From Escherichia phage FL31: 64,000 nucleotides of DNA. The notes below the pieces were generated by a model, which searched no databases, was not told the DNA's origin, and worked only from the letters and a program-made list of their open reading frames with translations. Both the position numbers and the translations under genes were made by a program. Position 1 is the stretch's first letter. The number at the start of each line of letters is the position of its first letter. The stretch lies in the sequence record PP400782, one strand, 5' to 3'. Positions 2,518 to 50,395 of the stretch are shown piece by piece.

Positions 2518-2883
2518 TTAGATATCGAATTCATTCAGAACTACATCAAAGATTGCTTCCAGGTGTTCAGGTTTAGCTCGGTTGCTCAGGATGTGACGAA
2601 TCCAAGTTTTAACCAGAAGCTTACGATTAACACCGTTCCAGCAAGGATGAGTACCTAAATCACGTTGACGGAAATCGTCATCTAATGCAATTTTGAAGTT
2701 GGAACCTTCCATCGTGATTGAAACCGTGATGCCATTTTCAAATCGCATATAAACGTAGTTAGGAGTCATGCACTGTTCGATTTCACAAACTGTACCATTT
2801 TCGTGTTTCCATAAGCAAATAACTTCAGAAGAACCAGCGATACCGTTAGAAACATATTTACGTTCGAAGTTGATGTAGTTCAT
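2518..2883 (-). CDS. hypothetical protein (121 aa)
   Basis: ORF track; early-type promoter immediately upstream at 2913-2953. Confidence 0.5.
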   Translation of the reverse strand: MNYINFERKYVSNGIAGSSEVICLWKHENGTVCEIEQCMTPNYVYMRFENGITVSITMEGSNFKIALDDDFRQRDLGTHPCWNGVNRKLLVKTWIRHILSNRAKPEHLEAIFDVVLNEFDI

Positions 2884-2912
2884 TTTATTCTCCAGATGTT
2901 TAAGTTATTTGT

Positions 2913-2953
2913 TGGTACAGGACTATAATAACATAACCTGTACCAAAGTAAAC
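2913..2953 (-). promoter_or_regulatory. early-type promoter (GTTTAC -35, 17-nt spacer, TATTAT -10)
   Basis: Minus-strand read; 8-bp inverted repeat GGTACAGG/CCTGTACC flanks the -10. Confidence 0.5.
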
Positions 2954-2957
2954 ATTT

Positions 2958-3329
2958 TTATTTGATTTTTGTCCACTTAGCTGAATCAATAACACCTTTT
3001 GCTTTAATCTTCTCAATTAATGACTCTGCGCGATTTCTGGCATTTTCGTACCATACAACATCTTCAGAGTAACCAGTTTCTTCATCTTCGTAAGTTTTAG
3101 AACGAATACAGCCATAAACTGTAGAATTCAGACGGTAAATTTCACCAGTGAAAAAGTTTTCGATTTCGATATGATAACAAAAATCGTCTGAAGGGCCGTC
3201 AGGAGTTGTACAATAAACCACATCACCTTGAACTGAACGAACCATCCACTGTAACTCGTTAACAACTTGAGATTTATATCCATCATGGTCACGGCATTTA
3301 ATTGTAGCATTTAAATTGATAGTGTTCAT
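2958..3329 (-). CDS. hypothetical protein (123 aa)
   Basis: ORF track; early-type promoter upstream at 3362-3400. Confidence 0.5.
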   Translation of the reverse strand: MNTINLNATIKCRDHDGYKSQVVNELQWMVRSVQGDVVYCTTPDGPSDDFCYHIEIENFFTGEIYRLNSTVYGCIRSKTYEDEETGYSEDVVWYENARNRAESLIEKIKAKGVIDSAKWTKIK

Positions 3330-3361
3330 TTTATTCTCCGGTTGTTTTATTGATTAGGTGG

Positions 3362-3400
3362 TACAAGTCTATAGTAACACATCCTACAGGAGAGTAAACA
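3362..3400 (-). promoter_or_regulatory. early-type promoter (GTTTAC ... TACTAT)
   Basis: Minus-strand read, upstream of ORF 2958-3329. Confidence 0.45.
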
Positions 3401-7233: not shown

Positions 7234-7458
7234 TCAGTGTACAGTATTTACTTTAACTCGAACAACAAATTGCTCGGTCGGTTCGCCTACAGGAACAAAC
7301 TCTACATGATATTCACCTTTGTAACGAGTATTCAGATCATTACGAATTCCTGCGAGTTTGTTGATTAATGTAGGACTCATATTAAGTCCCACTAGTTTAC
7401 GAAGCATTTTGTATGCTTCATCTTCGATTTCATGATGTTTATCGTACATAGTTTTCAT
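7234..7458 (-). CDS. hypothetical protein (74 aa)
   Basis: ORF track. Confidence 0.45.
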   Translation of the reverse strand: MKTMYDKHHEIEDEAYKMLRKLVGLNMSPTLINKLAGIRNDLNTRYKGEYHVEFVPVGEPTEQFVVRVKVNTVH

Positions 7459-46930: not shown

Positions 46931-47359
46931 TTATTCCTTAAAATGTGCTTTCAACATTTGATACAAAGACCATGCCTGGTCGTTATTTTCGATAGTAATC
47001 GTCATCACCGGAAATTCAGACAATTCGTCAAGTTCACTAGAATCTTGCTCTTCGGACGCTTGATACGGATTTCCAACTTCGTCAAAGAACTCTGCTTCAT
47101 TCGTGGAAAGCCAGATAAAGTTTTCATCAAGAATATCACCGCCTGTTGCGTATCCAACCATGCCGGTAGATGTCACAATTTTAGTAGGACGACCAAGATG
47201 GTCAACATCTAATACTTTAAATGGTTCCATGCCAAGACGTCGTGCATAAATCCCATTATCAGTATGGTCTTTAATAAACTCTTCTTGGGCACGTTTATCT
47301 TTAAATTGGTACCACGAGTTAACGCGGAATTTATTAGCCATTAGTAAGTTTCCTTCCAA
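46931..47359 (-). CDS. hypothetical acidic protein (142 aa)
   Basis: ORF track; size and position compatible with T4 goF but not verified. Confidence 0.5.
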
Positions 47360-47587: not shown

Positions 47588-47626
47588 GATAGGTCTATAG
47601 TATCATAGACTATAGTTGTTGTACAT
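47588..47626 (-). promoter_or_regulatory. early-type promoter (ATGTAC ... TACTAT)
   Basis: Minus-strand read. Confidence 0.4.
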
Positions 47627-48150
47627 CATTTTAGCAAAATAAAATCAACTTGTTCTGCCAATGAACGTCTAAACATTAATTGACAACTTCCGAGGATGAA
47701 ATCAGGTGCTTCATAGACCGCGATGTAGTATCCTTTAGCTTTCAAGAGTTCAACATCTACCTGGTCATCAAACCATGCATAAACCGCGTCAACGCTTTCA
47801 AATCCAAAATAGAACCCTTGAGCCCAATCTTCACTCAATTCAAATGTGTACTCAATTCTATGGTATCTTAAGATATTTTGTTCAAGAAGTTTGTCTTCAT
47901 TTACTGTAGGACGATTAGGGACATTATAGTTGTCGCCGTGATGGTAGAAGTTACCTGAGAGTATTCCATGCTTATCAAGGAACTCCCATGTTTCTTCAGA
48001 GTTGTCAGTGCCGGACCAACCATAAGGTGAGCGAGGTTCTTTATTCCAAGAGGTTTCCCAAATTCTGACGGCTTTACCGTCTTCGATAGCAATTCCTGGT
48101 AATGATTCACGTTGAGTACAAAAACTACGTTCTACGCGGTAAACTAACAT
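47626..48150 (-). CDS. hypothetical protein (174 aa)
   Basis: ORF track; SD GAGGAG; promoter 48164-48205 upstream. Confidence 0.55.
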   Translation of the reverse strand: MLVYRVERSFCTQRESLPGIAIEDGKAVRIWETSWNKEPRSPYGWSGTDNSEETWEFLDKHGILSGNFYHHGDNYNVPNRPTVNEDKLLEQNILRYHRIEYTFELSEDWAQGFYFGFESVDAVYAWFDDQVDVELLKAKGYYIAVYEAPDFILGSCQLMFRRSLAEQVDFILLK

Positions 48151-48163
48151 ATTATTCTCCTCT

Positions 48164-48205
48164 GGTTGATATGGTTATAATATCAAAACCAGAGGAGAAG
48201 TAAAC
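48164..48205 (-). promoter_or_regulatory. early-type promoter (GTTTAC ... TATTAT)
   Basis: Minus-strand read; 10-bp inverted repeat TCCTCTGGTT/AACCAGAGGA whose downstream arm contains the SD of ORF 47626-48150. Confidence 0.5.
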
Positions 48206-48209
48206 AACT

Positions 48210-48629
48210 TTATGCGAAAGCAGCTGGGCTATATTTTTTAATTTGGAATTCAGGAACTACCATGAACTGACCAGCGAAAACGATGTTATAAAGCTTAACA
48301 CCATCTTCTACCCAACGGTCGCTAATAAATCCGGCGATTTGCTTAGTTTTCCATGGCGTTCCATCAGTTGCCGCAGCAATAGTGAATTCATGGTCTTTTT
48401 CAACAGAAACTGATCTGCATAGTCCCCATTTGAACGCTTTTTCTTCTGGCTCAATGAACTGGCTTGAGACGTAGCCAATATTACCATTAGCATCACGAAC
48501 TTTAACTTGGTTACGACCAAAAACCGGATCACTCACAGAAAGAACTTCAACCAACTTCCCGGCAACTTTAGAGCGAGAAGCAACAGATACATATACGTAA
48601 TCACCTGTAGAGAGATTTACAATATTCAT
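48210..48629 (-). CDS. paralogue A of tandem gene family (139 aa)
   Basis: Shares SASRSKxAGxLVEV, FKWxLC and GFISDxWVEDGxKLYNIVFxGxFxVV blocks with paralogue B. Confidence 0.55.
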   Translation of the reverse strand: MNIVNLSTGDYVYVSVASRSKVAGKLVEVLSVSDPVFGRNQVKVRDANGNIGYVSSQFIEPEEKAFKWGLCRSVSVEKDHEFTIAAATDGTPWKTKQIAGFISDRWVEDGVKLYNIVFAGQFMVVPEFQIKKYSPAAFA

Positions 48630-48638
48630 AATAATTCC

Positions 48639-49094
48639 TTAAGCTTTACGAGGAGACACGTAGCGAGTGATTTCAGATTCTTTAACAACTCGGAAGTCAC
48701 CTAAGAATACGATATTGTATAACTTTTCACCATCTTCAACCCATTGGTCACTGATGAAGCCGCACATAATATCAGTTTTGTTTGGATAACCATATTCGTC
48801 GATGAAATCAAATTCTTTATCAGTCCGGAATTCAACGCCTTTGCAAAGGGCCCATTTGAACTGTACATTAGGTTCAGTAGAAGCAAAATGAGCGCTCACA
48901 TGAGTTTCCAAGAATTTAGGACTTACGTAAGCGTACTGAGTTTCAGTTTTTCCAGAACTAGGAATGATTCGAACTTTAACTTCTTTAACACGACCAGTAC
49001 CATTAGTACGAAGTCCTACCACTTCAACTAGACGACCTGCAGCTTTAGAACGAGATGCAGACGATACACGCTTAATTTCACCAATAGTAATCAT
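48639..49094 (-). CDS. paralogue B of tandem gene family (151 aa from internal start)
   Basis: Start moved to ATG (MITIGEIK) because promoter 49118-49154 overlaps the longer ORF; SD AGAGAG. Confidence 0.55.
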   Translation of the reverse strand: MITIGEIKRVSSASRSKAAGRLVEVVGLRTNGTGRVKEVKVRIIPSSGKTETQYAYVSPKFLETHVSAHFASTEPNVQFKWALCKGVEFRTDKEFDFIDEYGYPNKTDIMCGFISDQWVEDGEKLYNIVFLGDFRVVKESEITRYVSPRKA

Positions 49095-49117
49095 AATTTC
49101 TCTCTCTTTGTTTAAGT

Positions 49118-49154
49118 TGAATTCATTATACTCCATCCGTCCTTGGATGTACAA
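49118..49154 (-). promoter_or_regulatory. early-type promoter (TTGTAC ... TATAAT) for paralogue B
   Basis: Minus-strand read; near-duplicate of promoter at 49672-49712. Confidence 0.45.
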
Positions 49155-49156
49155 CA

Positions 49157-49651
49157 TTAATTAAGGATATTAACCACAGCACTACGTGGAACTACACTAA
49201 AATCACCTGCATGAACTACGTTCAGAAGTTCAACACCGTCTTCAATCCACTGATCAGTTACCCATCCATTTACTGGACCAGCGAATGGGCGTCGAATTGA
49301 AACATATTTACACAACAAATCAGTAGGCTCAATAGGCTTAATCAGAGTACCGTACATACAAGCGATATCCATATCAATACAGATATCTTTAACGGGTTCT
49401 ACTTCTTCAATCAACAGTTCAAAGTCGGTGCTTGGAATGGCGGTAGTAGAAATTGTACCATATGAATTTTTAATTTCTAAGAATAACCAAGGGCCTTCGG
49501 CTTGTTTGATGAAGTTAACAATAGTGAAACTATTACCTTGAGTGGCGCCTAAAATTTCACAAAACTTTTCATAAGCTCGCACTGAAGCACCGTACCAGTT
49601 AATTTGTTTTTCGTCTTTCAGGATGTAAGTAGCCGTAGTATTGATATTCAT
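49157..49651 (-). CDS. paralogue C of tandem gene family (164 aa)
   Basis: C-terminal GWVTDQWIEDGVELLNVVHAGDFSVVP matches the conserved C-terminal block of A and B. Confidence 0.55.
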   Translation of the reverse strand: MNINTTATYILKDEKQINWYGASVRAYEKFCEILGATQGNSFTIVNFIKQAEGPWLFLEIKNSYGTISTTAIPSTDFELLIEEVEPVKDICIDMDIACMYGTLIKPIEPTDLLCKYVSIRRPFAGPVNGWVTDQWIEDGVELLNVVHAGDFSVVPRSAVVNILN

Positions 49652-49671
49652 AATGTTTTTCCTGTTTGGTT

Positions 49672-49712
49672 AGGATAGAAAGATTATACTCCAACCGTCC
49701 TTGGTTGTAAAC
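49672..49712 (-). promoter_or_regulatory. early-type promoter (GTTTAC ... TATAAT) for paralogue C
   Basis: Minus-strand read. Confidence 0.45.
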
Positions 49713-49717
49713 TGGTT

Positions 49718-50395
49718 TTATCGCTGTTTTACACTTAACGGGTCAGGATTCTCAGGGACATCTTCAAGGCCAAGCGCATAACGCTGAGCATATTTTAACA
49801 TCAAAATATCTTTAGCACAATCATGAATACTATCATGGGCAACGAATCCTTTTAGCGCACCCATCGGTAATGGACACATACTTAATCCTCGTGTCAACGA
49901 GTAAGCTTCGATTGCCGTACGAATATCGCGTTGAGCCCAGAATTTAACAGGTTCTAATTTATCGGTATCAATATCTGGTTCAAGAACACCTTCATCACGA
50001 TAGAGGTCACGAATCAAATCGACCAAGATCGGGAAGTCAAAGCTCATACCACGGCACCACATCTGTGATTTCCATTGGTCAACTTTATTAGCTCGACAAT
50101 AATCTAAAAAGATTTTAATGCCTTCAAGCGTAGTGACATCGTCTTCAGACGGGGCCAAGTTTTTACGCGCTTCCGCCGATTGTTCTTTCCACCATTTCAT
50201 AGTGGATTTAGCGAAAACTCGCTTCCCTTTCTGAGAAGCTAAATTAAATTTAATTCGCTTACCTCGTTGAACAAGTTCTTCAAATGATTCAACAACTTCA
50301 GGGTCGGAATTATATGCAATAACCGCAAGATCAATAACAGCCGCTTTTGATGTATTGCCGAATGTTTCAAAATCTATAATAACATCAGTGCTCAT
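49718..50395 (-). CDS. dexA: exonuclease A (DEDD-type 3'-5' exonuclease)
   Basis: 225 aa; N-terminal IIDFETFG exo motif; adjacent to dda as in T4. Confidence 0.8.
   Translation of the reverse strand: MSTDVIIDFETFGNTSKAAVIDLAVIAYNSDPEVVESFEELVQRGKRIKFNLASQKGKRVFAKSTMKWWKEQSAEARKNLAPSEDDVTTLEGIKIFLDYCRANKVDQWKSQMWCRGMSFDFPILVDLIRDLYRDEGVLEPDIDTDKLEPVKFWAQRDIRTAIEAYSLTRGLSMCPLPMGALKGFVAHDSIHDCAKDILMLKYAQRYALGLEDVPENPDPLSVKQR

Follow-up and report, generated by a model that had tools for sequence, protein, structure and literature searches.

A motB.1, motB and second motB gene cluster with near-duplicate promoter cassettes in Escherichia phage FL31

Introduction

What are the three adjacent, mutually similar open reading frames (ORFs) on the minus strand of Escherichia phage FL31 (PP400782), and what is the C-terminal module that they share? 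They occupy positions 48210-49651 of the 64,000-nucleotide (nt) stretch analysed here (hereafter the window). An earlier note, drawn from the letters alone, had described them as a tandem triplet of diversifying paralogues in an early region and had taken them for a host-takeover or anti-defence arsenal. Our analysis indicates, with a probability of roughly 80%, that FL31 is a Mosigvirus (RB69-like T-even) phage and that the three ORFs form its motB.1 - motB - second motB cluster, with early promoters of the promoter-early stem-loop (PeSL) kind, two-barrel proteins and MotB copies that coat DNA.

Identity of the three genes

The first gene, ORF164 (49157-49651; 164 amino acids, aa), is the motB.1 orthologue. 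It is followed on the same strand by the motB orthologue, ORF151 (48639-49094, 151 aa; listed as 48639-49157, 172 aa), and by a second motB paralogue, ORF139 (48210-48629, 139 aa), here called MotB'. The three minus-strand ORFs lie side by side as the earlier note had placed them, and the similarity between them proved highly significant. In BLASTP comparisons, ORF139 and ORF151 share 43% identity over 145 aa (E 2e-31), ORF151 and ORF164 44% over 36 aa (E 3e-10), and ORF139 and ORF164 55% over 29 aa (E 1e-10). All three proteins also exceed the gathering cutoff of the Pfam family PF17613 (motB; 25 bits, whole-protein score), ORF151 with 131.1 bits, ORF139 with 75.6 and ORF164 with 35.0, the match in ORF164 being confined to its C-terminal part (residues 84-159). 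Against the T4 proteins, ORF151 is 48% identical to MotB (E 1e-43; residues 1-145 on T4 residues 2-156), ORF139 is 37% identical to MotB (E 6.5e-25; residues 6-139 on T4 residues 3-162), and ORF164 is 38% identical to MotB.1 over 134 aa (E 2e-26). In addition, ORF151 matches phrog_1671 (E 5.5e-64) and ORF164 matches phrog_2333 (E 8e-83). The idea that the similarity is due to chance, or that the ORFs are not genes, can be practically dismissed in view of the pairwise E-values of 1e-10 to 2e-31, the Pfam and PHROG matches and the purifying selection on hundreds of conserved orthologues.

The core of the shared barrel reads G[FW][IV][ST]D.W[IV]EDG..L.N[IV]V..G.F.VV, and the homology extends upstream of the block first noticed, with LCK.V.. 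before the G[FW][IV][ST]D.W[IV]EDG core in all three proteins. In MotB.1 the module lies at 49160-49327 on the minus strand (EPTDLLCKYVSIRRPF..GWVTDQWIEDGVELLNVVHAGDFSVVPRSAVVNILN), and relatives with other N-terminal domains (NTDs) match it at 74-88% identity. A tblastn search for a fourth copy in the window found only the three, the next-best match having an E-value of 0.35. The N-terminal blocks ASRSK.AG.LVEV and FKW.LC are common to ORF139 and ORF151 only, in keeping with the earlier observation that they are limited to two of the three genes. Synonymous sites between the paralogues are saturated even within the conserved block (proportion of synonymous differences, pS, 0.66-0.89), so the gene duplication must be old, and it is selection, not recent gene conversion, that has kept the amino acids conserved.

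Escherichia phage LF82-4 shares 98.6% identity with the region, and many Mosigvirus genomes match the region at 96% or more with the same gene order. Read from dexA, the order in FL31 is motB.1 - motB - MotB' - motB.2. The trio is flanked on the motB.1 side by dexA (49718-50395; 67% identical to T4 DexA) and on the other side by a 174-aa ORF orthologous to T4 MotB.2 (motB.2, 47626-48150, ATG at 48150); goF, the next gene past cef, lies at 46931-47359 according to the annotation of the 98% identical phage SA79RD. The trio is located in the dispensable early dda-dexA...cef-goF-39 region of Tevenvirinae genomes, which bears out the early-region location and is where the MotB family is found. The family had already been named and this arrangement described, which the first reading of the sequence missed, as it did the different, MotB.1-type NTD of the dexA-side gene. 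Patterson-West et al. 2021 (PMC7827196) reported that RB69 has two motB copies and one motB.1, that MotB and MotB.1 have a conserved C-terminal domain (CTD) in common while their NTDs differ, that one of the two genes was probably derived from the other, and that several phages carry extra copies.

Start of the middle gene and the promoter cassettes

The 172-aa form of the middle ORF starts at ATG 49157, and its extension contains the promoter cassette P2 described below. The start equivalent to ATG 49094 is used by the RB69 record (151 aa), and T4 MotB aligns from residue 2; because both start at this position, the real product is almost certainly the 151-aa protein from ATG 49094. The 172-aa annotation, 21 codons too long, is found in many database entries, and a correction is warranted for a gene that is so often extended over its own promoter.

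Two near-duplicate promoter cassettes had been claimed for two of the three genes, and they are real. P1, upstream of motB.1 (49652-49717, minus strand), has a -35 box TTTACA (49711-49706) and a -10 box TATAAT (49688-49683), followed by a 5' untranslated region (UTR) and a Shine-Dalgarno (SD) sequence; P2, upstream of motB (49095-49156, minus strand), has a -35 box TGTACA (49153-49148) and a -10 box TATAAT (49130-49125), likewise followed by a 5' UTR and SD. Both have 17-nt spacers, and by match to the consensus they are the best sigma-70 candidates in the region. The 26-nt block ACANCCAAGGACGGNTGGAGTATAAT occurs exactly twice in the 64 kb, at 49125-49150 and 49683-49708, with none expected from shuffled sequences, and the similarity runs on via the 5' UTR to the ATG, giving about 70 nt at about 80% DNA identity. 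The only two core differences between P1 and P2 form a compensatory pair that preserves a 5-base-pair (bp) spacer stem, CAACC/GGTTG in P1 and CATCC/GGATG in P2. This one pair is what supports the stem, and the small hairpins of P1, P2 and the cef-proximal cassette do not surpass shuffled sequences in stability (z about -0.3 to -0.5). Since the coding duplicates are saturated whereas the cassettes remain about 80% identical, the cassette similarity is not a remnant of the ancient gene duplication.

Shigella phage JK45 (locus coordinates 1660-1745) lacks motB.1, and its dexA-motB spacer is chimeric, the P1 cassette making up its 5' part and the P2 leader its 3' part. Such a chimera is the product expected of recombination between near-identical cassettes and points to PeSL-mediated loss of motB.1. 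The duplicated cassettes may be taken as a concrete case in which a motB-family gene was gained or lost by way of PeSLs.

MotB' starts 9 nt past the motB stop, with its own SD (AAGGA) and no promoter of its own, and is thus taken to be co-transcribed with motB. The unit is closed by a stem-loop at 48155-48199 (minus strand; minimum free energy -24.1 kcal/mol, z -6.4), which overlaps a promoter-like GTTTAC-N17-TATTAT (48205-48177) including its -10 box and contains the motB.2 SD (GAGGAG) in its 3' arm. This stem-loop is annotated as a terminator in phage SA79RD. A terminator scan flagged neither it nor the cassette stems, a U-tract being missing after the stems, and we treat it as a probable PeSL stem rather than a classical intrinsic terminator. 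The motB.2 SD would be masked in read-through transcripts and free in transcripts from the internal promoter. T4 has a matching stem/promoter design upstream of motB.2 with another stem sequence (-23.7 kcal/mol; T4 locus coordinates 2663-2725), and the promoter-hairpin cassette of motB.2 appears to move along with its gene, to another position in T4. Overall, a predicted sigma-70-like promoter with a stem-loop, intergenic and directly before an SD and start codon, is found at P1, at P2 and at the motB.2-proximal element, and gain, loss or shuffling of the flanked gene is seen in JK45, which lacks motB.1, and in T4, where motB.2 is relocated.

Domain architecture and predicted fold

To describe the shared module, AlphaFold2 models of MotB (ORF151) and MotB.1 (ORF164) were built with family alignments; mean pLDDT was 83.5 and 78.8, respectively, and the barrel domains are confident. 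ORF151 is predicted to consist of a basic KOW/SH3-like N-terminal barrel (1-62), a linker and a C-terminal barrel (79-151), and ORF139 has the same two-domain plan. Both resemble T4 MotB in the KOW-like NTD and in the CTD, the feature of MotB proper. ORF164 is predicted to consist of an N-terminal LSm/SH3-like barrel (1-85; strands 8-11, 42-49, 55-61, 67-73 and 80-83, helix 26-37), a disordered linker (86-108) and the shared C-terminal barrel (109-164). With its five-stranded bent-sheet NTD, linker and MotB.1-type CTD it has the features of the MotB.1 group; it lacks the likeness to T4 MotB in both NTD and CTD that marks MotB proper (Category 1) and was filed as MotB.1. Kim et al. 2025 (PMC12152347) grouped the NTD of MotB.1 with GoF and Frd.2 as one LSm-like fold family; with the same fold reported for the GoF NTD, at least four small beta-barrel proteins lie in this short early region.

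The structure prediction returned a confident small beta-barrel for the C-terminal module, with an SH3-like strand order. In the DSSP strings of both models, the CTD has four strands, a short helical turn and a fifth strand, which is the SH3 pattern and not the OB pattern. In Foldseek the MotB.1 model aligned with tandem Tudor and tandem KOW proteins, the alignments spanning 119-163 columns, and no OB fold was present in either of the top-60 lists for the MotB and MotB.1 models. Queries with ORF151 and with the CTD profile found nothing usable by sequence among solved structures in the PDB. Together, the models suggest that the family consists of tandem SH3-like barrels on a flexible linker, and that the shared CTD is SH3/Tudor-like rather than OB.

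The CTD has been read differently before. Patterson-West et al. 2021 called it an OB fold on the basis of HHpred and considered that it may itself bind DNA. If it were a cold-shock-type OB fold and the nucleic-acid-binding part, all three proteins, including MotB.1, would bind DNA or RNA through the CTD. Consistent with this, conservation in all three proteins is highest in the module, as it would be in a functional core, and SH3 and OB folds are both small beta-barrels that are difficult to separate by sequence. However, the helix expected between strands 3 and 4 of an OB fold is missing, the short helical turn sitting between strands 4 and 5, and OB-fold structural neighbours are likewise missing from the top-60 lists. 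Moreover, the net charge of the module is -3 to +1 and the isoelectric point (pI) of MotB.1 is 4.5, unusual for a non-specific nucleic-acid binder, and the CTD profile matches no solved structure by sequence. We consider the OB reading improbable, and an SH3/Tudor-like, non-basic shared domain, if the models are right, redirects the question of which domain binds DNA.

Charge differs between the domains. MotB has an NTD of +8 (pI 10.7) and a CTD of -3, with a whole-protein pI of 8.8; in MotB' the NTD is +2, much less basic than that of MotB, the CTD is +1, the linker is shorter and the whole-protein pI is 7.8; in MotB.1 the NTD is -5 and the CTD -2. The pattern is alike in T4 MotB and in the 143-aa T4 MotB.1.

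The MotB family is modular. Some relatives have a MotB-like KOW NTD joined to a MotB.1-type CTD. In ORF164 a short motif, D[MF]D[IV]A[CS]MYGTLIKP, stands between the domains (window 49340-49381, residues about 91-104). Relatives of 180 aa and 250 aa have this motif at their extreme N-terminus, ahead of the NTD, and T4 MotB.1 does not have it.

Distribution, copy number and selection

Among 50,697 phage records, 780 have the MotB.1-type CTD, with 1,682 occurrences altogether. The named hosts of these records are mostly Escherichia, Shigella, Klebsiella, Yersinia and Salmonella, and all records inspected are T-even-type phages. Searched exhaustively with a profile, 1.84 billion representative proteins yielded only 39 matches, showing that the family is narrow; 24 of them have E-values up to about 1e-10 and are all 100-250 aa long. 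Matches of 600-1500 aa, in which 20-residue stretches were hit four to seven times, were judged to be repeat-motif noise (GW..D..W hairpins) and not relatives. MotB' orthologues with at least 80% identity occur in 207 phage records, and the range of 60-80% identity is empty.

Copy number of the motB family varies among related phages, from one in T2 through two in T4 and in JK45 (the latter without motB.1) to three in PP01 and Mosigvirus. The layouts are motB.2-motB.1-motB in T4, motB.2-motB.1-motB-motB' in PP01, motB-motB'-motB.2 in JK45 and motB.1-motB-motB'-motB.2 in Mosigvirus.

The earlier note had regarded the paralogues as diversifying. Alignment of the paralogues was significant, as reported above, while the ratio of nonsynonymous to synonymous divergence (dN/dS) between them is uninformative with synonymous sites saturated; orthologue comparisons were used in its place (pairwise Nei-Gojobori, 6-9 orthologues per gene). 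These gave dN/dS values of 0.15 for motB.1, 0.24 for motB and 0.15 for motB', compared with 0.04 for dexA and 0.08 for motB.2 on the flanks, and thus show purifying selection. Per-domain values range from 0.07 (MotB.1 CTD) to 0.32 (MotB NTD), those of the CTDs being 0.07-0.17. The variable columns fall in the linker and in the long CTD hairpin, and the core motif is almost invariant.

In favour of an arsenal that tracks changing host targets under positive selection, with copy number expanding accordingly, copy number does differ among related phages. Between Mosigvirus genomes, motB and motB' do diverge more than their neighbours, both in dN (0.05-0.06 versus 0.003-0.009) and in dS (0.25-0.36 versus 0.08-0.11 for the dexA and motB.2 flanks, i.e. 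two- to fourfold), and H-NS silencing, which MotB affects, can count as a defence. However, dN/dS does not exceed 0.24 for a whole gene or 0.32 for any domain, the variable positions lie in loops and linkers around a module core that barely changes, and the paralogues are ancient (pS as above). Since synonymous sites are raised as well, the divergence of motB and motB' suggests mosaic exchange of old alleles, not positive selection. We regard such a diversifying arsenal as quite unlikely. What stands of the earlier claim is that these are paralogous early genes and that T4 MotB is a host-takeover protein; diversification does not stand, and for an anti-defence role the sole pointer is the published link of MotB to H-NS silencing, no search of PADLOC for anti-defence families having been made.

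Single-base insertions in the T4 and RB69 reference records

Comparison of the modules across phages revealed that the T4 reference NC_000866.4 has one extra G in motB.1, at about 7304-7305 (locus coordinates 1805-1806), reading TGGATTGGAAGATGG where the window (49240-49250) reads TGGATTGAAGA. The extra G cuts T4 MotB.1 to 119 aa, with most of the C-terminal barrel lost, and the remainder of the module (LEDGVELLNVVHAGEYSVVPRSAVVAILN) continues in another frame. Two resequenced T4 records (MT984581 and KJ477684) are without this G, and in another 11 records, of T4, RB55 and RB59, the alignment comes out one base shorter than the T4 reference; a programmed frameshift in T4 motB.1 was rejected on these grounds. 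MT984581 annotates a MotB.1 of 143 aa with the full module, and this 143-aa form is present on 256 contigs.

Similarly, the RB69 reference NC_004928 (locus coordinates 2877-3373) has two 1-nt insertions in the C-terminal module of motB.1, which break the gene up into an ORF of 132 aa and a "hypothetical protein" of 29 aa, RB69p012, the sole Category 3 entry of Patterson-West et al. 2021. The gene is intact in the window (49157-49651) and in other Mosigvirus genomes. By sequence comparison, the truncated MotB.1 of the T4 and RB69 references comes from 1-nt insertions in those records. This matters for work with genes made from NC_000866.4: the motB.1 that Kim et al. 2025 synthesised was taken from this record, and the MotB.1 they studied probably lacked most of the conserved barrel.

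Proposed function

T4 MotB is an abundant early protein whose DNA binding is not sequence-specific; it is toxic to E. coli and raises burst size twofold (PMC6070864, PMC7827196). It copurifies with H-NS/StpA on DNA (PMC6070864), changes the footprint of H-NS and lifts the repression of part of the H-NS regulon (PMC7827196).

Based on these reports and on the features above, we infer early expression, DNA binding and a division of labour between the domains as follows. P1 and P2 would act as strong sigma-70-type early promoters of the PeSL kind, P1 driving motB.1 and P2 driving motB with its tightly linked second copy at the start of infection, and the stable stem-loop would end the motB-MotB' unit. 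Each protein is modelled as two small beta-barrels on a flexible linker: the predicted SH3/Tudor-like C-terminal barrel common to all three would be combined with a KOW-like NTD in the MotB copies and with an LSm-like NTD in MotB.1. Given its 48% identity to T4 MotB from end to end, the MotB orthologue most likely acts as an abundant protein that coats DNA irrespective of sequence. T4 MotB itself remodels the nucleoid and alters the seating of H-NS on DNA, to the benefit of phage yield. The second copy most likely has a MotB-like role with lower DNA affinity. We propose that it is chiefly the basic N-terminal barrel that binds DNA, that the shared non-basic C-terminal barrel serves as a common self- or partner-interaction module, and that MotB.1, acidic overall, employs the shared barrel without coating DNA.

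Several points besides the published OB assignment weigh against this reading. The Foldseek E-values are weak (best 2e-3), and the SH3/Tudor assignment was made from AlphaFold2 models and from match lists that do not give the aligned domain; with both domains SH3-like, shared top matches are no proof. Promoter activity was judged by consensus match alone, and the function of the Mosigvirus copies was carried over from T4 MotB at 48% and 37% identity. Deletion of motB.1 from T4 gave no laboratory phenotype (PMC12152347), and a DNA-independent contact between MotB and H-NS was not detectable (PMC7827196), which keeps a protein-partner role of the CTD conjectural.

Taken further, the shared CTD as a Tudor/SH3-like interaction module and not an OB fold would imply that MotB, MotB' and MotB.1 associate mutually or via one host partner, a proposal that we put forward as speculative and rather doubtful. 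If it were true, the trio would be a tunable nucleoid-remodelling set, in which MotB.1 and MotB' act on DNA-bound MotB filaments as modulators or caps, and the published work on the synthetic 119-aa T4 MotB.1 would have used a protein without that module.

Comparison with known systems

The likeness to tandem Tudor proteins (53BP1, UHRF1) and tandem KOW proteins (Spt5/DSIF) is treated as a predicted resemblance of fold rather than as membership. Sequence similarity to these proteins is not detectable (7-20% identity).

PeSLs are promoter-early stem-loop cassettes of T4-type phages (Arbiol 2010, Comeau 2014; PMC2839356, PMC4122927). P1 and P2 fit the T4/PST-type consensus TTTACW-N17-TAYWAT except for the G at the second position of the P2 -35 box (TGTACA). 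As in PeSLs, a stem-loop lies in the stretch that separates the -35 box from the -10 box, followed by an SD and a start codon, and the flanked gene is present or absent between related phages. Different from the strong, terminator-like stems of the RB49/phi1 PeSLs, the spacer stems of P1 and P2 are weak, with 5 bp.

T4 MotB, a nucleoid-associated protein encoded by the phage, has the two-domain plan and the early dexA-cef position of ORF151 and ORF139, and an early promoter directly upstream, likewise in FL31. Unlike in T4, the motB-type gene of FL31 is in a tandem pair, and motB.2 follows the trio instead of preceding motB.1. T4 MotB.1 (Category 2 of Patterson-West et al. 2021) has the N-terminal barrel with an inserted helix and the MotB.1-type C-terminal module that are also found in ORF164, but it is without the 21-residue inter-domain insert of ORF164 (DMDIACMYGTLIKP...). 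The trio, the shared CTD and the layout of two motB genes plus one motB.1 have thus been published already, and the locus is no new kind of system: in RB69 (NC_004928, RB69p010-p013) the genes and their order are as in FL31, with protein identities of about 95-98%.

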